From Enterobacteria phage vB_EcoS_IME18: DNA of 50,354 nt. Below the pieces are notes generated by a model. That model saw only the letters and a list, made by a program, of their open reading frames with translations, ran no database searches and was not told where the DNA came from. Shown one piece after another: positions 5,512 through 49,737 of this stretch (positions within the stretch are counted from its first letter, which is position 1; each line of letters begins with the position of its first letter). Location of the stretch: sequence record MH051911. One strand, given 5' to 3'. The position numbers and the translations under genes were made by a program.

Positions 5512-6036
5512 TTAAAGCATGTCAAGAATGCTATTTACTGCGTCCTTCATTGCATCCTCAGTAGTGGCTACTACTGTCGATGCGGAAGCTGACGAGTTTT
5601 CGATATTGATTGAGGCTGGCTTGTCGATTCCGAGATCCTTACCGATAAATGAGGCGTTAATAACACCGTTGGCGGCAAGCTGGAATTTTTGCTCGTTGAT
5701 TACCGATTCCACAAACTCCATAACCTCACTGTATTCTTCCTCTCGCTTCCACTTAATGATTGCGGCCTCGCTTGCACCGATGAATAGTCGGTATCCGGTC
5801 CAGGTGAAGACGCGCGGCTTATGGACAAGCGATTCATAAACGCCACCCTGAAAGCTGGCTGATTCTGACGCCTTGATTGCATTGTCCTCGGCCCATTCGA
5901 AATACTTCACTGACAGATCGAATAGTTGCTCTGGCGTCATCGCCCGGTTTTTCGCGAGTACAGTGCCAAACTTTTTCTTGTATAGCTCTTTGAAATTACC
6001 CCCCTGGACTACGGGAGCGTTCTTAGGTTCACTCAT
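5512..6036 (-). CDS. putative terminase small subunit
   Basis: Start reassigned to ATG 6034-6036 with SD GAGGA; position immediately upstream of large terminase. Confidence 0.5.
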   Translation of the reverse strand: MSEPKNAPVVQGGNFKELYKKKFGTVLAKNRAMTPEQLFDLSVKYFEWAEDNAIKASESASFQGGVYESLVHKPRVFTWTGYRLFIGASEAAIIKWKREEEYSEVMEFVESVINEQKFQLAANGVINASFIGKDLGIDKPASINIENSSASASTVVATTEDAMKDAVNSILDML

Positions 6037-6088
6037 AAATCCATCCTCTTTGTTTAACATTTAGTGCTATTTTACCATATTGCAGGCA

Positions 6089-6112
6089 TAAAAAAACCCG
6101 CCGAAGCGGGTT
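6089..6112 (-). terminator. intrinsic terminator separating early island from packaging operon
   Basis: Stem CCCGC/GCGGG with CGAA loop, A8 run on plus (U-run on minus transcript). Confidence 0.65.
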
Positions 6113-7825: not shown

Positions 7826-7885
7826 TTCGATTTTCTCTCTTCGTTGTCGATGAGGTAACTATATCAAATCACCCCATCGACGTTT

Positions 7886-7900
7886 TAGCAATTCGTGCTA
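7886..7900 (-). promoter_or_regulatory. palindromic box TAGCA-N5-TGCTA (promoter-associated)
   Basis: TAGCAATTCGTGCTA; on minus strand TATAGT lies exactly 22 nt downstream (7859-7864); overlaps stop codon of kinase gene. Confidence 0.6.
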
Positions 7901-8470
7901 TTTATTGATGAACGTGGCGGCTATGTGCTGAGCGGTAATTTCTGGATGACCTTCGACAGAAAAGAAGTCACATTCCTGATAACCGTTAACCCCGATCATG
8001 TAGTCAAGATAGATATAGTCGCGGCTGTCGTTATCAAAGCTGCAACCTTTGCGATGTATGCGGCATAGCTTGACCTGGATATCACCTTCAATCATTTGCA
8101 AGATCTCATCTTTGAATCCACCATCAGTAAATACCGAAAGGGAGTGCGACTCTTTCACCTTGCTTTCCGCTCGCATACCGAAAAAGCGATTGCCGAATTG
8201 CGGCTTGATGACCTCTTCACTAATCCAGATCATAAACTGGCGTGGGCTTTTACCGTTCAGGATTGATGCTGGCTCTTCTTTATATCGACGGTCCTCATAC
8301 AAGAACATGAAATACTCGTAGTTAGCTTCACCCAGGATTGCTCGGGCAATCTCAAACATTGGCGCTTTGAAGCTGCGCAAGGCTACGTGATCGTAAGTGT
8401 CAGCAAGGATGCATCCGATAGTGTCTTTTCCCGCTCCAGGTGCGCCGTTTAAAATGATAGCTGTTTTCAT
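7898..8470 (-). CDS. P-loop kinase (polynucleotide kinase-like or dNMP kinase-like)
   Basis: Walker A GAPGAGKDT at N-terminus; LNGKSP motif; adjacent to PNK-type phosphatase gene. Confidence 0.65.
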   Translation of the reverse strand: MKTAIILNGAPGAGKDTIGCILADTYDHVALRSFKAPMFEIARAILGEANYEYFMFLYEDRRYKEEPASILNGKSPRQFMIWISEEVIKPQFGNRFFGMRAESKVKESHSLSVFTDGGFKDEILQMIEGDIQVKLCRIHRKGCSFDNDSRDYIYLDYMIGVNGYQECDFFSVEGHPEITAQHIAATFINK

Positions 8471-9190: not shown

Positions 9191-9258
9191 GATTTATTCC
9201 TCTGATTGGTTGCTTAACTCAATGAAGGGCATTCTATCAAATGCCCTTGAGCAAGTTT

Positions 9259-9273
9259 TAGCAATTCGTGCTA
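9259..9273 (-). promoter_or_regulatory. palindromic box TAGCA-N5-TGCTA (promoter-associated)
   Basis: TAGCAATTCGTGCTA; TAGAAT 22 nt downstream on minus strand; hairpin AAGGGCAT/ATGCCCTT in spacer. Confidence 0.6.
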
Positions 9274-9720
9274 TTACCAGCAATCGACCTCGTAGTCAGC
9301 CCAAGCGTCAAAATCACTTTGGCAGAATGTGCCGCTATAATTTTCCATCATTTCATCGATCAGGAAGTAGCACGACTCACCGTTACGATAGAAGTATGAA
9401 TCAGCAACGTTACGCGCCCAGCGCCCAGCATCTTTCTTGCTCATCTTCCAGTATTTCATTGCAATTTTCTTGAATGCGCGAACAACGCGTTTGCGGATCT
9501 TTATATGCTTGTACACAGCGTTGCAGCCGTAGGCCATATATTCGTTATCGCCAAGATTCTGCATAATGTACGGATTTACTTCTCTTGACGTAATCATCAG
9601 ATCGCCATCGCCGCGACGCTCATCATAAATACTTGCTGTCATGTAGTGACCTCTGAACATTCCGATGCCGTGAAGAGTGTATTCATCGTTAGGCGTTTCA
9701 ATGCAAATTAAGTGTTTCAT
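9274..9720 (-). CDS. hypothetical protein
   Basis: Start reassigned to ATG 9718-9720 with SD GAGGAAG; 148 aa. Confidence 0.5.
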   Translation of the reverse strand: MKHLICIETPNDEYTLHGIGMFRGHYMTASIYDERRGDGDLMITSREVNPYIMQNLGDNEYMAYGCNAVYKHIKIRKRVVRAFKKIAMKYWKMSKKDAGRWARNVADSYFYRNGESCYFLIDEMMENYSGTFCQSDFDAWADYEVDCW

Positions 9721-12553: not shown

Positions 12554-12612
12554 GCTATCGTCCTCGTTCGTTGTCGATGGGGTTACTATATCGCAACCCC
12601 TGAGTTGAGTTT

Positions 12613-12627
12613 TAACAAAAAGTGCTA
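12613..12627 (-). promoter_or_regulatory. palindromic box (promoter-associated)
   Basis: TAACAAAAAGTGCTA; TATAGT 22 nt downstream on minus strand. Confidence 0.6.
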
Positions 12628-12816
12628 TTCTTTAATTTCGAAGCAATCGGTGTCTTCGTCGAATATCCAGGGGTCGCCGTTATCATCAAGTAATGAGATA
12701 TTCCCGAAGCTGGTTAGCGATGCACTATAAGGCTTGTCAACGGTAAAGCACTCTTTAACTTCCTCGTAATCACTGCCTTTGAATACTGCAATCATTTGGT
12801 GCATAAAATCAGCCAT
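12625..12816 (-). CDS. hypothetical protein
   Basis: 63-aa ORF. Confidence 0.4.
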   Translation of the reverse strand: MADFMHQMIAVFKGSDYEEVKECFTVDKPYSASLTSFGNISLLDDNGDPWIFDEDTDCFEIKE

Positions 12817-14691: not shown

Positions 14692-15207
14692 TTACAATCC
14701 ACATTTCTCAATATGCGCTTTCATCTGGCGCACGATCTCATTTACATCACGAACCATTAACTCGCTATCGCCCAGCTTGCTAACATCAACGTCAAACGAA
14801 TCGAGGCAATCAGTCAGGCTAACTTTCTTCCGGCTGCGGCGCTTCTTCACCGGAACCTCTTCGTCTGTAACGATAACGGTTATCATCGTGATTGCCGCGT
14901 CATTCCGGCCTACCTTCACCTTTGCCACCTTGCCATACTTACAGAAGTGCCTGGTAATGATCGGAGTGATGAAAGCGGACTTGAATCGCTTCTCTACCTC
15001 CCCCTGGTTCTGGTCCACCCATCCGGCAGCGGCAGATTCAAGATCGCTATCGCTTACCTCCTGGTCACGGAAGTAGAATCGCGCGGCTTCGAGGGCCATA
15101 TCATCAGCCACGAAAGAGAACTCATTCATGCCTTTGTCGCGATACATTGCATCGCAGGTTAGTCGAATCATATCGGTGATTTTTAATTCCTGATTGGTGT
15201 TGCTCAT
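14692..15207 (-). CDS. hypothetical protein
   Basis: 171-aa ORF, SD AGAGGG; first gene of minus-strand early block. Confidence 0.55.
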   Translation of the reverse strand: MSNTNQELKITDMIRLTCDAMYRDKGMNEFSFVADDMALEAARFYFRDQEVSDSDLESAAAGWVDQNQGEVEKRFKSAFITPIITRHFCKYGKVAKVKVGRNDAAITMITVIVTDEEVPVKKRRSRKKVSLTDCLDSFDVDVSKLGDSELMVRDVNEIVRQMKAHIEKCGL

Positions 15208-15611
15208 AATATACCCTCTTTGTCTATTCGTGTGTAAATGGTGTCATAATGTGTCAACAATTGCCATTGTGACATTGCGATGTAGAGCTGTCAATGCCTG
15301 CGAGCCAATTTTAAGCCGTGTAACATTTGTCTAGCTGTCTAGAGTCACTATAGAAATATATAGCTCTCAAAAAAGTACTGTATATATAAACATGCAGATA
15401 GAAATATGCCAACAGTACGCCAGACAATGTAAGACAACTATACACAACTATTACAATATAATTATCTATATATATAAATAAAAAAAACACTATATATATT
15501 ATATAGATACATATATCTATATGTATATTTAGAGGCGTCACAGTGTGTAATTTTGTCACAAGTGCGATTCTAGACAAATATTACATCCGTGACAAGTTAA
15601 AGTGTAATCGA

Positions 15612-15626
15612 TAGCACTTTTTGCTA
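15612..15626 (+). promoter_or_regulatory. palindromic box TAGCA-N5-TGCTA
   Basis: TAGCACTTTTTGCTA inside control region; no good -10 at +22. Confidence 0.4.
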
Positions 15627-15816
15627 AAAATGGAGATGACTACCAGGCGAACTGGGCAACACCAGATCATCCCTCTCACAATCATTGCAATCTCAGCAAC
15701 AAATCAACCAACTGTTGCACACCATGCAATAATCACGTTTCATCATTTGCAATCAATCGCAATCAGAATTATTCCACCTATTCCGATATTGATGGAATAA
15801 TGAGCAATTATTGGAA

Positions 15817-15831
15817 TAGCATTTTTTGCTA
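15817..15831 (+). promoter_or_regulatory. palindromic box (promoter-associated)
   Basis: TAGCATTTTTTGCTA with TATGGT-like hexamer about 22-23 nt downstream; upstream of 15895 gene. Confidence 0.45.
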
Positions 15832-15894
15832 ATGACTCGATCAGGTTGTCGGGGTATGGTTCTGGCCATCAACCAATCAGAAGAGGAAGCAGCA

Positions 15895-16512: not shown

Positions 16513-16582
16513 GCGGCAAGTCCGCCAAAACAAAACTGATACGATCCCTGTCGCCGCGTGGATTTTTCAAAGCGATCGCAAA

Positions 16583-16597
16583 TAGCACTTTTTGTTA
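16583..16597 (+). promoter_or_regulatory. palindromic box (promoter-associated)
   Basis: TAGCACTTTTTGTTA; CATAAT 22 nt downstream. Confidence 0.6.
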
Positions 16598-16658
16598 AAA
16601 CTCGATCTGTGCGATTTGGCATAATTACCTCATCGAAACGAGATTGAGGAAAAACAAA

Positions 16659-19252: not shown

Positions 19253-20821
19253 ATGTTTAATATTAAGCCAAAACTGAATTACCAACAGATTATTGAGATC
19301 GCCAATAGCACTGGAGTTAATCCGGTGGCGATCGCAATTCGTGAAAACAGCTATGGTGACTCAGTTTCATTTTGGCAAGATCCGATCGATATCAATAACG
19401 GCAACGATAAGTTCCCTCTGATTTCGTTAGGTGGCGATAACCTGGTATTCGAATATGCAAAAGCAAAAGCTGAATCAGTCCAGTTCCCGGTTTCATCCGC
19501 GTATGCTCATTTTATCGGTTGCATCTCAGCCGCGATGCTCGGGAAGTTTTGGGTGCAATATCACGGAGAGGAACAGCCGACCGCGCTTTACATGGTAATC
19601 AGCCAGCCACCATCAACAGGTAAGTCCGCTATTAACTCAGCGGCGATAACTCCTATGCGTGCGGAGATTCAGCGACTGAATGAAGAGCGCAAAAAGGAAC
19701 GTATTCGTTTAACCAGTCAGCTACGCCAGGTTGAGAAGGAAATCAAGAATGATCCTAAAGGAAACACGACTGCGGCACTATACGAGGACAAAGAAAAACT
19801 GGAAGAGAAGATCAAAAAGATGGCTGATATTGTTTTTGCTGTATCAGATCCTACACCTGAAGGTCTTGCGAAAGTAGCCGCTGTTCAGGGCCACTTTTCC
19901 GTAATCTCTGATGAGGCAACGGCAATCAATACATTGCTCGGCCTGACTTATGGAGGTTCAGACAAGAAGTCAAACAGTGAACTTATCCTTAAGGCGTGGG
20001 ATAAAAACCACATGGAGGTAGCGCGTTCCAACCAGGACAACAACTTGTCTCTTTGCCCGGTTGGCTCGATCTGCGTAATTGCGCAGGATGAAACAATCAA
20101 AGGTATCATGGACGCAGGCCAACGAGGTATCGGTGTATCTGAGCGCTTCCTGTTAGTTCGCGAGGAACCGCTTTTAGGTACTCGTATTCTTTGTGATGAA
20201 AATGGTGATGCATTGTATAAAGAAGTCGATCGAGGACTGGTTAGCAAATATTACAGACTCGTTCACAACATCATGAAGGAGGAAAACGTTGTTCTCTCTG
20301 TAAGCCGTAATGCTATGCGTGAATTAAACCTTGCGCGTCAGGCGATGGAGCCGGATTTCGCCGCAGGTGGGAAATACTCTCACTCAATGCTACGCGGTCA
20401 TCTCGGCAAGTTCGATAAGCACGCCTTGCGTATTGCTTCAGTTCTCCACACGATCAAGAATTGGGATGGTGAATCACCGAACCGTTCCAACCGTGAGATT
20501 GACCTTGAAACAATGCAGGAAGCAATCATGATCTTCAATGAGCTTTCCAGGACTTATCTGTCGTCTGCCAGCGCTGCCGGGTATGCTGGTGATGAAGCTG
20601 AATCTCGCAAGCTGATTGATGTTATCACTGAGATCGCAAAGAAGAACAAAGGGCGCGCTCCGATTCATAGCATTGTTGCAAAGTGCCGTAACGTTACGCC
20701 GTTCAACGGTCAACAGAAAGTAGCTGAGCGAATCGATAGCCTGCTGATCACGCTCGAAGAGATGAACTACACTTGCCGCATTGATGATATTGTTTTCATC
20801 AATCCTCGACTGATGGGTTAA
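19253..20821 (+). CDS. putative replication-associated ATPase (P-loop-like), function uncertain
   Basis: Start reassigned to ATG 19253 (SD AAGGAG); 522 aa; deviant Walker-A-like QPPSTGKS. Confidence 0.45.
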   Translation: MFNIKPKLNYQQIIEIANSTGVNPVAIAIRENSYGDSVSFWQDPIDINNGNDKFPLISLGGDNLVFEYAKAKAESVQFPVSSAYAHFIGCISAAMLGKFWVQYHGEEQPTALYMVISQPPSTGKSAINSAAITPMRAEIQRLNEERKKERIRLTSQLRQVEKEIKNDPKGNTTAALYEDKEKLEEKIKKMADIVFAVSDPTPEGLAKVAAVQGHFSVISDEATAINTLLGLTYGGSDKKSNSELILKAWDKNHMEVARSNQDNNLSLCPVGSICVIAQDETIKGIMDAGQRGIGVSERFLLVREEPLLGTRILCDENGDALYKEVDRGLVSKYYRLVHNIMKEENVVLSVSRNAMRELNLARQAMEPDFAAGGKYSHSMLRGHLGKFDKHALRIASVLHTIKNWDGESPNRSNREIDLETMQEAIMIFNELSRTYLSSASAAGYAGDEAESRKLIDVITEIAKKNKGRAPIHSIVAKCRNVTPFNGQQKVAERIDSLLITLEEMNYTCRIDDIVFINPRLMG

Positions 20822-21233: not shown

Positions 21234-21345
21234 GCAAGGGTTGTTGAGTCTGTTACTCACTTCAATGAGGGCCAACAACGACAGTGAGCACAATCTTTGC
21301 GATCAGGAAGGAGAGTTACTCCTTCACGTAAAAAGGTACAAATAG
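21145..21345 (+). CDS. hypothetical protein (overlapping, +1 frame relative to 20826..21233)
   Basis: ATG 21145 with SD GGAGAG spacer 7; stop TAG lies in box. Confidence 0.35.
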   Translation: MKICLANVETLIDRNVELCARLQLTKEEFEQGLLSLLLTSMRANNDSEHNLCDQEGELLLHVKRYK

Positions 21346-21357
21346 CACTTTTTGTTA
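21343..21357 (+). promoter_or_regulatory. palindromic box (promoter-associated)
   Basis: TAGCACTTTTTGTTA; TATATT 22 nt downstream. Confidence 0.6.
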
Positions 21358-21432
21358 AAACACCAGATCTCGTATCGGGTATATTTGTTTCATCGAAACG
21401 AAGCGACCCGAAGGAAAGCATTATGGCTAACA

Positions 21433-26063: not shown

Positions 26064-26118
26064 TTTTATTCCTCTCGTTTTGGTGAGATAATAATGCCAG
26101 ATTCCATCCCGGCAGTTT

Positions 26119-26133
26119 TAACAAAAAGTGCTA
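26119..26133 (-). promoter_or_regulatory. palindromic box (promoter-associated)
   Basis: TAACAAAAAGTGCTA; CATTAT/TATTAT about 22-25 nt downstream on minus strand; upstream of dam. Confidence 0.5.
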
Positions 26134-26547
26134 TTTCATCATTTCGTAAATTGCGATCTTGAATTGCCCGAATCCGTATGCGACGGCAGAGAAGCCACCA
26201 CGCTCCCGGACCTTTCGGAGAAATTCCCTTTGCTTGTCGCTGACTGGTGACGCCTTTCCTTTGCCTGACTTATTAACCCGCTTGAGTTCTATTGCTGCAA
26301 ACGGGTATCGTGAGTTAACACCAATCAGGATAACGAAGTCTGACACTCCTTTAAGTAATCCGGCCTGCTCATCCCTGAGCGCCGATGTGATTGTTTTTTC
26401 ACCTTCATTGACAGTGTGCCAAAATAGAAGGTGAGGAAAATTGTATTTCAGCCAGGACACACAATCCACCTGATGAGCGTCCTCCTTTCGAGTGTCGCTG
26501 GGATCTCGCTCGTAAAACTCTAAATAATCACCTTTGTCTGTAATCAT
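26131..26547 (-). CDS. VRR-NUC domain nuclease
   Basis: PD-(D/E)XK-type segment GVSDFVILIG...AIELKR typical of VRR-NUC; ATGA overlap with helicase stop. Confidence 0.65.
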   Translation of the reverse strand: MITDKGDYLEFYERDPSDTRKEDAHQVDCVSWLKYNFPHLLFWHTVNEGEKTITSALRDEQAGLLKGVSDFVILIGVNSRYPFAAIELKRVNKSGKGKASPVSDKQREFLRKVRERGGFSAVAYGFGQFKIAIYEMMK

Positions 26548-28604: not shown

Positions 28605-28627
28605 ACACGGCATACAGTAAACGTTTT

Positions 28628-28642
28628 TAGCAAAAAGTGCTA
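28628..28642 (-). promoter_or_regulatory. palindromic box (promoter-associated, divergent)
   Basis: TAGCAAAAAGTGCTA; on minus strand TATTAT 22 nt downstream, upstream of helicase; also sits about 10 bp from RBS of plus gene 28656. Confidence 0.55.
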
Positions 28643-28655
28643 TAGGAGAATTAAG

Positions 28656-29108
28656 ATGAGTATTCAACGCATCGCGGAGTCAACTGGTGAAATCGATAAA
28701 CGTCACATCAATGGTAACAACGGAACTCGACGCGGTAAAGACAAAAAGCCACGACAGCGCTGCGGGTTCTATATTCATAAGGAAGAAACACGCGCCGGAT
28801 TGCGAGCACGACTTGATGCGCTTATCGAATATTATGGTGGCCCTGCGGCATGCGCAAAGGCACTAAAAGTAACAAATCAGACGGTGCAAGGCTGGAAAGA
28901 ACGCAACATGATTTCGTGGCAAGGCGCTGAGGCTGCACATCGCGCTTACCGCCGACAGGGGTGTAAAGGATACCGCGCATCATGGCTGAGATTCGACCTC
29001 AAGTTTGATGGTAACGGCAAGTGCCTTGAGAAGCGATGCAAGAACAAGAAATTCATGCGGGTTGTGAAGAAGGAAGATATCGGAACGACCAATAGCATTT
29101 TTAGTTAA
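28656..29108 (+). CDS. putative HTH DNA-binding regulator (Cro/YdaS-like)
   Basis: Segment GGPAACAKALKVTNQTVQGWKERNMISWQGAEAAH resembles Cro-type HTH; SD AGGAG. Confidence 0.5.
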   Translation: MSIQRIAESTGEIDKRHINGNNGTRRGKDKKPRQRCGFYIHKEETRAGLRARLDALIEYYGGPAACAKALKVTNQTVQGWKERNMISWQGAEAAHRAYRRQGCKGYRASWLRFDLKFDGNGKCLEKRCKNKKFMRVVKKEDIGTTNSIFS

Positions 29109-29169: not shown

Positions 29170-30105
29170 GTGAACGAAGAATTTATGATGTTTCAGAAAG
29201 AGGACGTTTTACCGTACATGAAGGGGTTATGGCGCGAGGCTTTCCAATCAATCTGCGGATTGCCGAATGATGTTTTTAATAAGAAGCACCAACCCTGCCC
29301 AAACTGCGGCGGTAAAGACCGATTTCGCTGGACTGACAATCTTAACACTCCAGGCGACGGCGGCGCGATCTGTAACTCATGCGGCAACGACTCAGGGATC
29401 GGTTGGTTGATGAAGTTAACTGGTATGCCGTATAGCGAATGCATAAACATCCTGGGGAGATTTCTCGGAAAGGTTCCGCAGGAATACATTGTCAAGGCCA
29501 ATAAAAAAGCGCGAAGAACTCCGGTGTCTGGCGTCAATGTTATGATGGCAGACCATGAAGCAGTGATGAAAGTTATGGAGCGCACAGAGAAGCGCGTAAA
29601 CACGCCTCTAAGCATGTTTGAGTCGCTACCAACTGAATCATTCGACGTTGGCGTAAAACGTCGAGAGGATGGCGGTGAATCGGTATTTCACACTATCCCG
29701 TGTCAACTTGTGCATGAGGACGGGCTTGATGACGAGTTTTGCAATATTTTGATTATTGATGAGGAAGGAAGGGAGTCATTTTACGCGAAGAAATACACGA
29801 GTTGCTCGGTTGCCGTGACTGGTAAAACAGAAAAGGCGATCTACTTATGCCTGAACTGGATTGATGCTCAGCATATTGCATTTCATACAAAGCAAGAAGT
29901 ATGGGCCTGCTTCACTCCTGAAAATATCGAAATGGTTGCGTACAGGTATAAAGGTGATCGAGAAGTAAGGGTGGCGTGCGAACCTTCAGACAAGGATACC
30001 TTGTACATGGCAGACGACCGACAATTAAAAATAATCATCCCGAATCTTGGAGGGTACCGTTCAGGAATGCAATCCAAATTATTCTCAGCAAGCGATCTAC
30101 TCTAA
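29170..30105 (+). CDS. DNA primase (zinc-ribbon type)
   Basis: CPNCGG...CNSCGN zinc-binding primase N-terminal motif; 311 aa; followed by terminator. Confidence 0.6.
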   Translation: MNEEFMMFQKEDVLPYMKGLWREAFQSICGLPNDVFNKKHQPCPNCGGKDRFRWTDNLNTPGDGGAICNSCGNDSGIGWLMKLTGMPYSECINILGRFLGKVPQEYIVKANKKARRTPVSGVNVMMADHEAVMKVMERTEKRVNTPLSMFESLPTESFDVGVKRREDGGESVFHTIPCQLVHEDGLDDEFCNILIIDEEGRESFYAKKYTSCSVAVTGKTEKAIYLCLNWIDAQHIAFHTKQEVWACFTPENIEMVAYRYKGDREVRVACEPSDKDTLYMADDRQLKIIIPNLGGYRSGMQSKLFSASDLL

Positions 30106-30128: not shown

Positions 30129-30169
30129 GGCCATTGCAAGACTCATAGCACAATGATAAAATCAGTGCT

Positions 30170-30184
30170 TAGCAATTCGTGCTA
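30170..30184 (-). promoter_or_regulatory. palindromic box adjacent to tail fibre RBS
   Basis: TAGCAATTCGTGCTA about 20 bp upstream of tail fibre ATG; oriented opposite to that gene; a degenerate forward copy lies at 30146-30160. Confidence 0.4.
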
Positions 30185-30205
30185 TTTACTTAAGGAGTTT
30201 ATACT

Positions 30206-32230
30206 ATGGCTTTATATAGACGCGGTACAGCATCAATGGATGCAGACGGAACGGTTCACGGAACCGACACAAAATGGAAAGACCAACTTGCTCTGATTCG
30301 AGTCGGTGCAACTATCGTATTCCTGGAGCAACCGATCAAGCTGGCGGTAATCAGCGACATCGTGAGCGACACAGAGTTAAAGGCTATCTCTACGGATGGT
30401 CAGACTGCCGCTGACGGAAAGTATGTGATCCTGCTTAACGACTCATTGACCGTTAACGGGCTTGCGCAAAACGTCGCTGAGACGCTTCGATACTATCAAA
30501 GCAAAGAGACTGAGATTGCTGGAGCATTGGATATTATTGCCGATCTTGATATGGATAACCTTAACCGCATCGTTGAAGAAATTAAGGCGAACAAATCAGC
30601 CGCTGAATCTGCACAGAATCAAGCGGAACTTGCTCGCGACTCAGCGAATGCAGCACGCGACGAAGCTAACGCCACTAAAGGTCAGGTACAGCAAATTGTT
30701 GACGGGGCGGTCGGTAGCATCAATTCAGCAAAAGACCAGGCTGTAACAGCTGTTAACTCCACGAAAGATTCAGCAGTAACCACAATCAATCAGGAAGAAG
30801 CTAGCGCGATCTCTGCTATCAACGCGGCGAAGGGAGATTTATCAGGTTACGTTAATGACGCTCAAGCGGCTGCTTCTACTGCAACATCTGCTAAAAACGA
30901 CGCTCAGAATGCAAGAAATCAAGCAGTAAGCGCAAAAGATGCAGCGGCGGCGTCTGCTCAGGAAGCTAAGGATGCAGCAAGTAGTGTTAATGCCTCAAAC
31001 CTGTTAACAAAAGATGGAAATCTTTCTGGATTAACAAATACACAAGCAGCAAGGAATAACTTGCAGGTTTTATATGCATCAAATTCTAATTTGGGATCTA
31101 CCGATCTTAACACGCTTAACAGCACTAAGGAGGGTAGGTACTATCAAACAACATCGGCTAATGCTACATCAGAGCGTAACTACCCATTTCAGGAGGCTGG
31201 TTGTCTTACAGTATTTAAAACGGGCGCTGGAAGCGTAGAGGCGTGTATACAGGAGTACACCACGTTTTCAAGCATGCGTAGATTCGTTAGATCTCTTGCT
31301 GGGACGGTATGGAAGGAGTGGAAGGAGATCTACCTGCAAGGGTCATTCCCGACTTACGGCGATATTAACGCTAAAGGCCGCGTGAGATCTGAGAAGGAGT
31401 ACCCTTCGTTCGAGTGGGTAACGACGAAAGTCGGAGACGATTTCATTGGCAAACGAGTCAGCATAGAGAATGACTCTGGTGTTAATATGTTCATGTTCTT
31501 CATGCAGAAAGAGACAACAGCAAATAGACGTGTCGTATCGTTCGCAAGACCTAACTCTACCGTATTCCACTTCGTCGGCTACAACGGTGGACTGCCTACA
31601 GATGGCAACAGTGCGCCATCAAATAACATAAACTTTAACACTCAGCCACAAGGCTGGAGGTTGGTATCAGGTGGGTGGCAAAATGCTCCTCTTGCTGGTA
31701 ATAGCTACGGGACTTTATTCACGCAGTGTATGCAAGGTGTTGCGCAGGGTGATTCGAAAAACACGGGTGATTCAGGATTATGGTATTCGCAGCGATATAC
31801 TAACACCGAATCACGCATGTTTATCAGAAATCAAACTAACAACGCAAACTGGTCCAACTGGTTCGAGTTCACTAAAACAGCGGTATCAGACGAACGCCTG
31901 AAGAATGTAAAAGGTAATTTGAATGTTGAAGGTGCGCTTGATAACATCAATCGCATGGAGTTTAAAGTATTCTCATTTAAGGACGATAAAAAAGGGAAGG
32001 GATATAGACGCGGTGTTATCTCTCAGCAGATTCGACAGATTGACAAAGAGTATACAAAGGAGATAGGCGGTTACTATCATCTAGATCAAACACCTATGCT
32101 TCTTGATGGATTGGCGGCAATAAAGGCACTTCGCGCTCGTGACGAAGAGAGCAAAAAAAGAATTTCAGATCTTGAATCAAGAATTTCCTCACTTGAGGAT
32201 ATGATCAAAAAACTAATAGAAAACAAGTAA
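30206..32230 (+). CDS. tail fibre protein with C-terminal intramolecular chaperone domain
   Basis: 674 aa; N-terminal coiled/Ala-rich region; C-terminal SDERLKNVKG motif typical of autoproteolytic chaperone domains; SD TAAGGAG. Confidence 0.65.
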   Translation: MALYRRGTASMDADGTVHGTDTKWKDQLALIRVGATIVFLEQPIKLAVISDIVSDTELKAISTDGQTAADGKYVILLNDSLTVNGLAQNVAETLRYYQSKETEIAGALDIIADLDMDNLNRIVEEIKANKSAAESAQNQAELARDSANAARDEANATKGQVQQIVDGAVGSINSAKDQAVTAVNSTKDSAVTTINQEEASAISAINAAKGDLSGYVNDAQAAASTATSAKNDAQNARNQAVSAKDAAAASAQEAKDAASSVNASNLLTKDGNLSGLTNTQAARNNLQVLYASNSNLGSTDLNTLNSTKEGRYYQTTSANATSERNYPFQEAGCLTVFKTGAGSVEACIQEYTTFSSMRRFVRSLAGTVWKEWKEIYLQGSFPTYGDINAKGRVRSEKEYPSFEWVTTKVGDDFIGKRVSIENDSGVNMFMFFMQKETTANRRVVSFARPNSTVFHFVGYNGGLPTDGNSAPSNNINFNTQPQGWRLVSGGWQNAPLAGNSYGTLFTQCMQGVAQGDSKNTGDSGLWYSQRYTNTESRMFIRNQTNNANWSNWFEFTKTAVSDERLKNVKGNLNVEGALDNINRMEFKVFSFKDDKKGKGYRRGVISQQIRQIDKEYTKEIGGYYHLDQTPMLLDGLAAIKALRARDEESKKRISDLESRISSLEDMIKKLIENK

Positions 32231-32260
32231 AAATAAGCCCCGCAATGCGGGGCTTTTTAT
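32231..32260. terminator. bidirectional intrinsic terminator between tail fibre and ssb
   Basis: Stem AAGCCCCGC/GCGGGGCTT, loop AAT, flanked by A-run and T-run. Confidence 0.75.
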
Positions 32261-33445: not shown

Positions 33446-34510
33446 TTACTTGTTTTGGTATCGTACCCATGAAGGCGTTTCAAGTTCAATCTCGCTTGCG
33501 TCGCCAGCGTACCCAGGCCAAACATCCATTTCAGAGCAAGCCTTGTAAGTGTGGACTACGCTAATGTACTGGTTACGACCGATCCTGATTTGCTCCATAG
33601 TCATACGGTAAGCCAGTGCGATATAAGGCTCTTTTTTCTCCTGCGCCAGCAATCGAACTACGATCGGGATATCTTCCGGGAAGTTGCCTTCAAAAGCGCC
33701 AGCCTGGATTGCGCGTCGTAGCAGATCATGCTGCAAGGCCATTTTCAGATAATACCCGTGATTGTATGCCAGTCTAGGGAACTCTAACGGGTTGGCGCTC
33801 ATTGTTGTTTTGAAGTCAGTGATAATCAGTGCTTCAGGAAAAATAACATCTTCGAATACAGGATCGCCATTCTCATCATAACCAGTCAGGACACGACCTG
33901 GAACATTCTCCTTGTAATCAAGATGGTCAAGTCGAACCTTAACCTTGACGCCGGATATCTCACCGAAGATTGAAATCTCACGCTGAGCCGTTTCGCTGTT
34001 AATGCACGCTTCGTGATCCGGGTTTTGCTCAAGTATAGCTCTCATCTTCATGCAGGCGTCGTATTTATCAGCGTCAACGAGTTTCTTTCCTTCAGCGCGC
34101 GCCTCAGCTTCTGCGATCAGTTCAGTCAGGTATTGAACGTTGAGTTCTTCACCACAATCAACCATCATTTTGATGAGGTCAGGGTACTGTTTACCGGATG
34201 TACCTTTCAGGCCAAAAGATTTTAACTTTGCCGCCAGCGCCGTTTGAGAAGTAATGAGATCTTTAAACTCTGATGGAGCAGGACAACGCGCATACGATGC
34301 AGTAAACAGATCTCGGCTCTCAAAGTTGGTATGCGACTGAGTACCGAACTCAAGCGCTTTCGTTGTCTCATTCTTCTTGAATCGCCAGTTAGCCGGGCAA
34401 GTTTGATAGATTTCTGCAAGGCTCGATCCGCTTACATACTCTGCCGCCCAACCTTCGTTGCTATGATACTCGTCGTTAGAAAGCTGGCTTGATGTGAATA
34501 CCTGGAACAT
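33446..34510 (-). CDS. PD-(D/E)XK recombination exonuclease
   Basis: 354 aa; motif IITDFKTT consistent with D-E-K nuclease core; SD AAGGAG; upstream of ERF and SSB. Confidence 0.6.
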   Translation of the reverse strand: MFQVFTSSQLSNDEYHSNEGWAAEYVSGSSLAEIYQTCPANWRFKKNETTKALEFGTQSHTNFESRDLFTASYARCPAPSEFKDLITSQTALAAKLKSFGLKGTSGKQYPDLIKMMVDCGEELNVQYLTELIAEAEARAEGKKLVDADKYDACMKMRAILEQNPDHEACINSETAQREISIFGEISGVKVKVRLDHLDYKENVPGRVLTGYDENGDPVFEDVIFPEALIITDFKTTMSANPLEFPRLAYNHGYYLKMALQHDLLRRAIQAGAFEGNFPEDIPIVVRLLAQEKKEPYIALAYRMTMEQIRIGRNQYISVVHTYKACSEMDVWPGYAGDASEIELETPSWVRYQNK

Positions 34511-35037
34511 TGCGTTTATCTCCTTCGTTTACGATGAATCCATTATAGCCATTAACAGCGTTTAGTCAATCGAATACATGTAATTGGTGTGTAATTGCGT
34601 GTCTATATTGCTCAAGTTACAACCAGCATCAGCAGAATCAATGTCTTAAGTCGATTTTTATGCGATGTCTATTGCGTAACACTTGTAACCGCTTTTTCTT
34701 AGAAATACACAGATATCCATGAATAGAATCCCGATCGATTAAATTTTGAACATATATGATAGAAATTTGACGAATCAATCAAATCACCTGTTACACGATA
34801 GACAACTGTTACACAACAATAATTATATATATAAAGCTAAAATTAAATATTATCTATCTATATATATTATATAGAGTTTTTATCATATCTCCCTGCGGTC
34901 GGATGGGATCGATTTTGTAACGCCATCTCAAGTTACAAAAATAGACACCTGTTACACGAAAAAAATTGTAATCGAGCTATTGCAATAAAAGTAAACGCGA
35001 CATACAATGCAATCACACTAACGACGAGGACATGCAA
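34511..35037. promoter_or_regulatory. second AT-rich divergent control region, partly homologous to 15208..15894
   Basis: No ORF; shares exact 18-bp CTATATATATTATATAGA and a GACAACT(G/A)T(T/A)ACACAAC segment with region 1; repeated CACCTGTTACACGA and CTCAAGTTACAA. Confidence 0.5.
34980..35008 (+). promoter_or_regulatory. sigma70-type promoter for lipoprotein gene (-35 TTGCAA, 17 bp, -10 TACAAT)
   Basis: TTGCAA 34980-34985 and TACAAT 35003-35008, about 30 bp upstream of ATG 35038. Confidence 0.5.
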
Positions 35038-35265
35038 ATGAAAAAGTTAATCACCATTATCGCTGCGGCATTCATCCTGACTGGTTGCTCATCGATGCCT
35101 GAGCGCACTTGCACGGCAATTTATGAATCAGGCGGCGCGGAGTACTCGGTTTACGTTTTTGGATCTAAGATGCGCGGAAAGGAGATGGTATTGCGTGCTG
35201 GATACCCATTCTCCTTCAACTATGTATCAGAGAAAAACTTCAAATCTCACGATTGCTCGATATAA
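35038..35265 (+). CDS. Cor-like superinfection-exclusion lipoprotein (putative)
   Basis: 75 aa with signal MKKLITIIAAAFILTGC (lipobox LTGC); SD GAGGA; next to tail fibre/J genes where cor sits in T1/phi80-like phages. Confidence 0.45.
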   Translation: MKKLITIIAAAFILTGCSSMPERTCTAIYESGGAEYSVYVFGSKMRGKEMVLRAGYPFSFNYVSEKNFKSHDCSI

Positions 35266-35288
35266 AAGAAAAGCCCCGCAAGGGGCTT
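35262..35288 (-). terminator. intrinsic terminator after distal tail genes
   Basis: Stem AAGCCCC/GGGGCTT, loop GCAA, A-rich run on plus side (U-run on minus transcript). Confidence 0.6.
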
Positions 35289-39782: not shown

Positions 39783-39809
39783 ATTATACAGGCGAAAAAA
39801 AACCCGCGC
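39783..39809 (-). terminator. intrinsic terminator/attenuator between I-like and J-like genes
   Basis: Stem AACCCGC/GCGGGTT preceded by A8 on plus (U-run on minus transcript). Confidence 0.55.
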
Positions 39810-39823
39810 AAGGCGGGTTAATT

Positions 39824-41933: not shown

Positions 41934-41973
41934 TGTCTTTTCCTCTTGTTTAGTTGCAACCATTCTACAGCTA

Positions 41974-41996
41974 CAAAAAAACCCGCGCAAGGCGGG
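41974..41996 (-). terminator. intrinsic terminator/attenuator between M-like and L-like genes
   Basis: Stem CCCGC/GCGGG, A8 run on plus (U-run on minus transcript). Confidence 0.5.
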
Positions 41997-45242: not shown

Positions 45243-45258
45243 ATAACCCCCTTATATA

Positions 45259-45281
45259 CAAAAAAACCGCCAAACGGCGGC
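45259..45281 (-). terminator. hairpin plus U-run between chaperone and tape measure genes
   Basis: Stem CCGCC/GGCGG with A-run on plus (U-run on minus transcript). Confidence 0.45.
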
Positions 45282-45916: not shown

Positions 45917-45938
45917 GATATTTCTCCTGATTGGTTAA

Positions 45939-45953
45939 TAGCACTTTTTGTTA
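45939..45953 (+). promoter_or_regulatory. palindromic box adjacent to chaperone G RBS
   Basis: TAGCACTTTTTGTTA about 20 bp upstream of G start on opposite strand; TACGAT 22 nt downstream on plus. Confidence 0.4.
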
Positions 45954-45989
45954 AAAGCAAAGAGTGCAAAGTTGATACGATGATTTTAC

Positions 45990-49695: not shown

Positions 49696-49701
49696 CAATA
49701 A

Positions 49702-49716
49702 TAGCACTTTTTGTTA
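49702..49716 (+). promoter_or_regulatory. palindromic box between decoration-like and capsid genes
   Basis: TAGCACTTTTTGTTA; plus orientation inside minus-strand operon; TATGCA-like hexamer 22 nt downstream. Confidence 0.4.
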
Positions 49717-49737
49717 AAGCGTCAAAGTGTTTTTATG

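Follow-up and report, generated by a model that had tools for sequence, protein, structure and literature searches.

Introduction

The genome of Enterobacteria phage vB_EcoS_IME18 (sequence record MH051911), analyzed here over its full 50,354 nucleotides (the window), contains two AT-rich intergenic regions, IG1 (15208-15894) and IG2 (34511-35037), that carry diverged copies of one repeat-bearing module. As yet, these paired modules are, judged from sequence, the strongest candidates for the replication origins of phages of the T1 type. Among the closest described systems is that of SPP1, likewise a virulent pac-type siphovirus, which has two origins of like organization, oriL and oriR, each combining direct repeats with an AT-rich unwinding element and both bound by gp38 (PMC6316719). 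[quoted passage not shown] The parallel is one of organization, as sequence or protein homology to SPP1 was not demonstrated. SPP1 has a DnaB-type helicase and a loader, whereas the phage studied here encodes an MCM-like DUF3987 helicase and no recognizable loader; moreover, oriL lies inside the initiator gene, and neither SPP1 origin coincides with the packaging site, pac.

A second parallel is offered by SaPI origins, in which 6-12 copies of penta- or hexanucleotide iterons are placed in opposite orientations around a central AT-rich region (PMC9371898). Here, too, repeats flank an AT core. The SaPI iteron sequence is element-specific. Rep, a self-loading AAA+ helicase, carries a winged helix at its C-terminus, and the primase is either separate or fused (PMC9371898). 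A phmmer search against the PDB revealed no similarity of the phage helicase to SaPI Rep, and no SaPI Rep was among the listed fold matches. The phage further differs by an acidic third helix in the winged helix and by two module copies per genome, while the SaPI origin is located directly downstream of rep.

Phage P4 uses two separated cis sites, ori and crr, that carry the same short iteron and are bound by the alpha protein. The primase of our phage belongs to the same Zn-ribbon family (Pfam Zn_Ribbon_Prim) as that of P4, but alpha combines primase, helicase and binding functions in a single polypeptide and its helicase is of a different class. We take the repeat GTGAACA of TLS-type phages to resemble the P4 iteron TGTTCACC, a similarity that may be due to chance. 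The pac site of phage P1, finally, consists of two hexamer sets around a cleavage region of ~80-90 bp. As a likeness, relatives of our phage have a packaging end that maps to the IG1 core; as a difference, there are two copies per genome here, of which one is at the packaging end, away from the terminase genes.

T1 is a classical T phage, yet its origin and its pac sequence are both undefined. Genome papers report that no origin or iteron-like repeats were found in T1-like phages (PMC11447400, PMC7718038), and in the searchable literature we found neither a mapped T1-like origin nor a description of the modules presented below.

Two collinear modules in IG1 and IG2

The window represents a Tunavirus genome (T1-like, Drexlerviridae) with the same gene order as T1, and its IG2 and IG1 show 91-96% and 77-96% identity, respectively, to Tunavirus genomes. 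IG2 is flanked by the exonuclease VIII gene (33446-34510, minus strand) and the cor lipoprotein gene (35032-35265, plus strand), and IG1 lies between two divergent blocks of small early genes; the GenBank record of T1 opened within IG1. A sequence-only reading of the window had noticed that the regions share an 18-mer. Exact copies of CTATATATATTATATAGA, a near-palindrome (CTATATA-TAT-TATATAG), indeed occur in both on the plus strand, at 15490-15507 and at 34858-34875; the second position, initially given as 34867-34884, had been misplaced by 9 bp. With up to three mismatches allowed, four matches to the 18-mer were found compared to 0.03 expected in shuffles. The adjacent GACAACT..ACACAAC segment is also real (GACAACTATACACAAC at 15433-15448 and GACAACTGTTACACAAC at 34801-34817), given a 1-nt indel in the alignment, and both pairs of direct repeats described for IG2 are exact (CACCTGTTACACGA at 34785 and 34946; CTCAAGTTACAA at 34611 and 34927).

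Pairwise alignment of the regions revealed a wider similarity than these elements. Seven anchors are common to both copies and keep their order (TAGAAAT twice, GACAACT.., TATATATATAAA, the 18-mer, a 16-bp repeat and TGTAATCGA), with an offset between copies of 19349-19371 bp across ~260 bp. The Smith-Waterman score of IG1 against IG2 was 60, compared to 33 +/- 5 (maximum 49) for block-wise shuffles preserving local composition. By this evidence, the regions are paralogous, collinear and apparently cis-acting modules of ~290 bp. Copy A (15318-15611) and copy B (34666-34975), both assigned to the plus strand, were delimited by the anchors and the local alignment and, for copy B, by a footprint of 14 Tunavirus sequences. 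The earlier suggestion of two copies of a diverged module is, thus, well supported, as the 16-bp repeat is common to both and absent elsewhere.

Each module is built around a core of 70-100 bp that is, by its base composition, the least stable duplex predicted for the genome. The peak 100 bp of core A (15434-15533, 86% A+T) and core B (34789-34888, 82% A+T) rank first and second among all 100-bp segments in a genome with a mean of 54%. As in iteron-type origins, a candidate DNA-unwinding element therefore adjoins the repeats as far as AT content is concerned, with melting itself only predicted.

The 16-bp repeat TAGACAMMTGTTACAC, searched with up to three mismatches, has six matches in 50 kb against 1.15 expected genome-wide, and all of them are located in IG1 or IG2, three per module (15318 on the minus strand, 15441 and 15571; 34781, 34799 and 34942). 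Read from the sequence, the unit is TAGACA-NN-TGTTACAC, with two half-sites ending in ACA about one helical turn apart. In copy A, the inverted candidate iteron TAGACAAATGTTACAC (15318-15333, minus strand) stands 123 bp left of the core-proximal copy, a degenerate iteron with three mismatches (15441-15456, plus strand) marks the left edge of the core and overlaps GACAACTATACACAAC, and TAGACAAATATTACAT (15571-15586, plus strand) follows to the right of the core, within the spacer of a leftward sigma-70-like promoter (15595 to 15567). Copy B has two tandem iterons on the plus strand left of its core (34781-34814), comprising one with three mismatches (34781-34796) and the exact TAGACAACTGTTACAC (34799-34814), as well as TAGACACCTGTTACAC to the right (34942-34957, plus strand). 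An inverted TGTTAC..TAGACA unit (34666-34681, minus strand) lies 123 bp left of 34789-34804, which is the spacing seen in copy A. RTKACA hexamers in both orientations number 9 and 10 in the two regions versus 3.2 and 2.1 in dinucleotide shuffles, and the only two 200-bp clusters of such hexamers in the whole genome are the modules. Short repeats that are clustered and replicon-specific in this way are also a feature of iteron-type origins.

Scanning the complete window against Rfam at gathering thresholds and for tRNA genes gave no Rfam match and no tRNA. DnaA boxes (TTWTNCACA) are absent from both regions, with one in the whole genome, which sets the modules apart from oriC-like origins. A contribution of the host proteins IHF and Fis, considered in the sequence-only reading, is not supported, since the IHF consensus has one match, in IG2, in addition to the lack of DnaA boxes; GATC occurs twice per region. 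Two open reading frames (ORFs) were rejected as genes. The first, with 88 codons across core A, is an AT-rich artefact. The second, a 46-codon ORF with a TTG start (34638-34778, minus strand) that corresponds to hypothetical protein CPTT1_049 in T1, is open in 14/14 Tunavirus sequences but probably not a gene, because its variable sites are distributed over the codon positions without bias (8, 13 and 12). Rfam, tRNA and codon-position tests, therefore, point to neither a known RNA family nor a small gene in the regions.

Conservation across Drexlerviridae

The sequence-only reading had named a chance low-complexity AT match as the alternative to a meaningful 18-mer. This is not borne out in relatives, in which the 18-mer is kept: it is exact in IG2 of 12/13 Tunavirus loci and present with 0-3 edits in IG1 of nine relatives. 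An alignment of 14 Tunavirus IG2 sequences showed invariant core, repeats and promoters, while the spacers vary. In Tunavirus IG1, the core is conserved and the flanking repeats are mosaic, with GTTAATC/GATTAAC arrays in T1.

Upstream of the exonuclease gene, an AT core is present in each of the 45 IMG/VR loci of Drexlerviridae that were examined (exonuclease identity 42-99%). Its AT peak reaches 74-86% per 100 bp and, in 43 loci, is 219-307 bp away from where the exonuclease match starts; in the two positional outliers, the module was present on inspection. The short repeats flanking the core differ by genus and comprise GTTACA in Tunavirus, GATTACA in Sertoctavirus SRT8, GAACAA or GAAACA in TLS-like phages and GGTAAGAT in Webervirus Sushi. 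According to the TLS paper, iteron-like repeats are absent from the entire TLS genome; a locus that matches TLS in its coordinates (L046) shows such repeats. In most of eight modules compared, the core is bracketed by its nearest repeats as an inverted pair, which is clearest in the two Tunavirus and the two Sushi copies and in IG2 of TLS.

A second copy was identified in the early/pac intergenic region of all four genera checked. The two highest AT peaks of the genome coincide with the sites equivalent to IG2 and IG1 in TLS (82 and 81%) and SRT8 (80 and 79%), and the two loci fetched for Sushi, which represent both sites, peak at 82% and 79%. When IG1 and IG2 of the four genera were aligned in all combinations (4 x 4), the same-genome pairs on the diagonal scored 60, 96, 63 and 83, compared to 25-51 off the diagonal. 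Because the diagonal scores exceed all others, the two copies in one genome appear to evolve together, and the closeness of same-genome copies favors a single phage DNA-binding protein, specific to the genus, that acts on both copies. The proposal that the copies are paired recognition sites for one protein is, thus, well supported at the sequence level. With Sushi IG2 as query, BLAST gave matches in 357 Webervirus genomes, most of which were hit at two places. Gene order is rearranged in this genus, with the genes for a helix-turn-helix (HTH) protein and the primase, the module and the exonuclease gene contiguous in this order; by sequence comparison, the module stays with replication and recombination genes when gene order shifts.

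The modules also matter for annotation: spurious ORFs have been entered here in some records, and the AT cores are places where draft assemblies break. Fragmented Tunavirus drafts (OR845167, OR845214, OR844733, OR844705, OR844725 and OR844658) end at or beside the AT-rich modules. We considered such contig breaks as physical ends and set this idea aside, since they probably reflect coverage drop-out in extreme AT-rich DNA.

Candidate binding and replication proteins

No initiator was recognized among the phage proteins, which include the phage's own MCM-like helicase and primase. Both modules are linked to replication genes, as is typical of iteron-type origins: IG1 lies 3.3 kb from the helicase gene, and IG2 adjoins the exonuclease-annealase-SSB operon. 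The best candidate binder of the repeats, judging from sequence features, is a basic protein of 150 aa (isoelectric point 10.2) with a Cro/YdaS-like HTH, encoded at 28656-29108 on the plus strand directly upstream of the primase gene and labeled as transcriptional regulator by PHROGs. Its putative recognition helix differs between genera with different repeats. Repeats and HTH helix both differ by genus, but all proteins diverge with genus. Co-variation within Tunavirus was uninformative for finding the binder, as TerS (the small terminase, 5512-6060) and the HTH protein are both 95-99% conserved.

An alternative candidate binder is the replicative helicase itself (19253-20821, plus strand), assigned by Pfam to DUF3987, a group of superfamily 6 (SF6) replicative helicases (PMC4889955, PMC11724360). 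Its AlphaFold model (pLDDT 89.8) has MCM subunits as the best PDB folds and a winged helix at the C-terminus, the third helix of which is acidic. The primase gene (29170-30105, plus strand) encodes the Zn-ribbon of primase-helicases (Pfam Zn_Ribbon_Prim). Sequence searches of the PDB with the helicase, the HTH protein and a 135-aa protein gave no meaningful matches.

The gene at 14692-15207 (minus strand), the first in the leftward early operon, was also evaluated as a source of the binder and rejected: it co-varies with the flanks of IG1 and not with IG2 and is, therefore, probably only linked. This gene is hypervariable in the genus: its product shares 52% identity with its counterpart in T1 and 22% with the one in DELF2, as opposed to 95-99% for the exonuclease, TerS and HTH proteins. 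The C-terminal third of the product (..DEEVPVKKRRSRKKVSL..VRQMKAHIEKCGL) is conserved, and the divergence of the gene follows the mosaic left flank of IG1.

The modules as candidate replication origins

With evenly balanced confidence, we propose that the paired modules are T1-like replication origins in which iterons flank a DNA-unwinding element, and that copy A is also located at the packaging start. Protein binding, the identity of the binder, core melting and origin function are what we infer from sequence. The anatomy is origin-like in its genus-specific repeats, the predicted dyad of sites around the core, the two co-varying copies, the linkage to replication genes and the flanking putative promoters. 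An origin-type element also fits better than an operator, because the repeats bracket what is predicted to be the least stable DNA, beside replication and recombination genes.

In the simplest form of this model, a genus-specific phage DNA-binding protein, either the HTH protein or alternatively a domain of the DUF3987 helicase, would bind the repeats that flank the core on either side. The AT core would then melt, the MCM-like helicase and the Zn-ribbon primase would be loaded and a host polymerase would elongate. The IG2 copy may be the main origin. Alternatively, similar to SPP1 oriR, it may be a protein-bound barrier at which forks break, thereby feeding concatemer synthesis that depends on recombination. 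The IG1 copy would also be at the packaging start, with the first terminase cut probably within its AT core.

Several points weigh against the origin model. The motifs were defined after looking at the data and the repeat statistics are, therefore, optimistic; the comparative data are independent of this choice. Gene conversion by the phage's own recombinase could explain the concerted evolution of the copies even if they share no binding protein. As the repeats in Tunavirus IG1 flanks vary while every candidate binder is 95-99% conserved, the repeats cannot all be specific sites for one protein. The version with a self-loading helicase is weakened by the acidic third helix in the modeled winged helix, which makes this domain a weaker candidate. 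In Webervirus, a packaging end falls inside the IG1 core, so that part of the anatomy could serve packaging. Both modules also lie in predicted promoter regions, with some repeats at -45 to -80, and a regulatory role is possible. Cumulative GC and AT skew, tried as an origin indicator, follows transcription direction only and was uninformative.

The modules offer two precise targets of ~300 bp, one 16-bp candidate binding site and three candidate proteins, and the start site and mode of T1-like replication and their relation to packaging become directly testable. Genus-specific repeats could also explain replication incompatibility or exclusion between co-infecting Drexlerviridae and would be relevant when these phages, which are common as therapeutics and as contaminants, are engineered.

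Promoters and a possible operator function

We next weighed whether the modules are operator or enhancer arrays for immediate-early promoters, with the Cro-like HTH regulator at the repeats switching the two strongest host-type promoter regions and the AT core acting as curved or UP-like upstream DNA. This is possible, although we consider it unlikely. The predicted promoter of the exonuclease operon, TTGACT-16-TATAAT (34542-34569, minus strand), matches 11/12 consensus positions and is the best sigma-70 match in the genome; its TTGACT box (AGTCAA on the plus strand) is present in 11/11 upstream sequences listed, across the genera sampled. The early-left operon is preceded by the sigma-70-like TTGACA-17-(TG)CACAAT (15266-15294, minus strand; 10/12, extended -10). 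The modules are located upstream of, and in the same orientation as, these best matches (34569 and 15294). The candidate cor promoter is TTGCAA-17-TACAAT (34980-35008, plus strand). Only 13 sites in 50 kb score at least 10/12, and four of them fall within the two regions. Hexamers occur 10-50 bp upstream of both -35 boxes, as exemplified by distal half-sites (TGTAAT twice and GTTACA, 34579-34621) next to the exonuclease promoter, and a few at -45 to -80 of the leftward promoters. One 16-bp repeat is situated in a candidate promoter spacer, and the PHROGs name of the HTH protein would suit a regulator.

The geometry speaks against this role. A distance of 140-280 bp separates the -35 boxes from the core and its proximal repeats, the repeats extend over ~300 bp to either side of the core, and an operator needs neither extreme AT content nor a dyad of sites. 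The Webervirus module, in addition, is positioned downstream of a terminator with a single promoter to serve. The initial idea of duplicated promoter/operator cassettes, therefore, stands only in part: sigma-70-like promoters flank both copies, but most repeats, like the AT core, are 100-280 bp away from the -35 boxes, and the operator component is weakened by the persistence of the Webervirus module when no divergent promoter is present. A promoter firing into the core was also sought as a feature conserved in both copies and was seen only in IG1.

Packaging and the IG1 core

A packaging function would make the repeats small-terminase sites around a cleavage region, with IG1 as pac and IG2 as a second or auxiliary pac-like site. 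Previous work placed pac in the IG1 region in T1-like phages, and in TLS it was mapped there by restriction analysis, with the record start being a guess within the accuracy of this mapping. Further indications come from Webervirus, where five records (mtp28, mtp12, mtp10, mtp20 and cp2) start and that of Roth24 ends within ~3 bp of each other; the mtp and cp termini were set with PhageTerm (PMC10433977). Mapped on Sushi, the start of mtp28 (positions 1-60 of locus L074, OX335385; corresponding site at ~1249 of locus L071) falls within the AT core of the module that corresponds to IG1, with the right edge of the core ~25 bp away, and the homologous position in the window is ~15515. Because PhageTerm-set record ends fall there, the first terminase cut is probably in the AT core of copy A, as far as homologous positions can indicate. 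Tunavirus records start 110-215 bp further right (15642, 15662, 15676 and 15730). The architecture, with hexamers on both sides of a cut, is similar to that of P1 pac.

We nevertheless regard packaging signals as quite unlikely to account for the shared module. No complete record starts or ends at IG2 among 63 Tunavirus matches and a 60-row sample of 357 Webervirus matches, and classical T1 work reportedly found a single pac site. The module travels with exonuclease and primase genes rather than with terminase genes, and the IG1 flanks vary in Tunavirus although TerS keeps 97-99% identity there, which argues only weakly against the variable repeats as TerS sites. A better candidate for terminase recognition is found on the packaged side of the IG1 core, where a GCAATC/AATCA array is followed by inverted repeats (ATTATTCCAC..TGGAATAAT and CTATTCC..GGAATAG) at 15680-15835. 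This arrangement is absent from IG2, and its segment 15748-15832 is conserved at ~80% in >200 Klebsiella Webervirus genomes. As the array is conserved across genera and IG2 lacks it, we place the putative terminase recognition part of pac at 15680-15835 and regard the shared module as something else, the core of which would be used for the cut in IG1.

Origin and packaging functions may also be combined. In this more speculative scenario, to which we give little weight, the same phage protein, bound at the two copies, would set the origin or origins, the IG1 core distorted by it would be the substrate of the first terminase cut and the IG2 copy, fixed upstream of the exonuclease-annealase-SSB operon, would be a bound barrier to forks or a site of breakage from which recombination-dependent concatemer synthesis starts. 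A two-site system in rapid co-evolution with its binding protein would then provide a physical link between the initiation of replication, recombination and the initiation of packaging.

That the modules lack a shared function altogether, being AT-rich spacers homogenized by gene conversion or a chance low-complexity match, is very improbable: an active RecE/Erf-type system and the mosaic IG1 flanks within the genus would allow it, but the module is present in 45/45 family loci with exonuclease identities down to 42% and position kept in 43, a second copy exists in four genera, core and repeats are invariant in Tunavirus while spacers vary, and the alignment score is well beyond that of composition-matched shuffles.

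Regarding packaging direction, a 'repeat region' in the T1 records MK213796 and NC_005833 covers 1-2800 and extends from IG1 in the direction of the terminase genes. Read-derived ends in Webervirus and the numbering first used for T1, with ORF1 on the other side of IG1, suggest the opposite direction, and the annotated direction of the T1 terminal redundancy may be wrong.

Other repeated elements and neighboring genes

The module repeats are distinct from the 21-nt Drexlerviridae repeat aaATAGCACnnnTTGnTAAAA described for TLS and T1-like genomes (PMC11447400), one copy of which abuts module A at 15611-15634. The 21-nt repeat is conserved across genera in ~20 dispersed copies upstream of operons, whereas the module repeats are genus-specific and confined to two sites. 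Copies lie, for example, at 7885-7904, 9258-9277, 12610-12630, 15611-15634, 16582-16605, 21342-21365, 26116-26136, 28625-28645, 30169-30188, 45938-45961 and 49701-49724, and the spacing within the repeat exceeds that of a normal -35/-10 pair.

Within the replication cluster, a 674-aa protein (30206-32230, plus strand) contains a Peptidase_S74 (endosialidase chaperone) domain typical of tail fibers; its counterpart is annotated as tail fiber in SRT8 and as hypothetical in TLS. A further family of A-rich elements with GC hairpins (AAAAAAACCCGCGCAAGGCGGG) is found at operon ends (6087-6110, 32227-32250, 35263-35286, 39793-39816, 41972-41995 and 45257-45280). These elements are intrinsic terminators that share more sequence than termination function alone demands.

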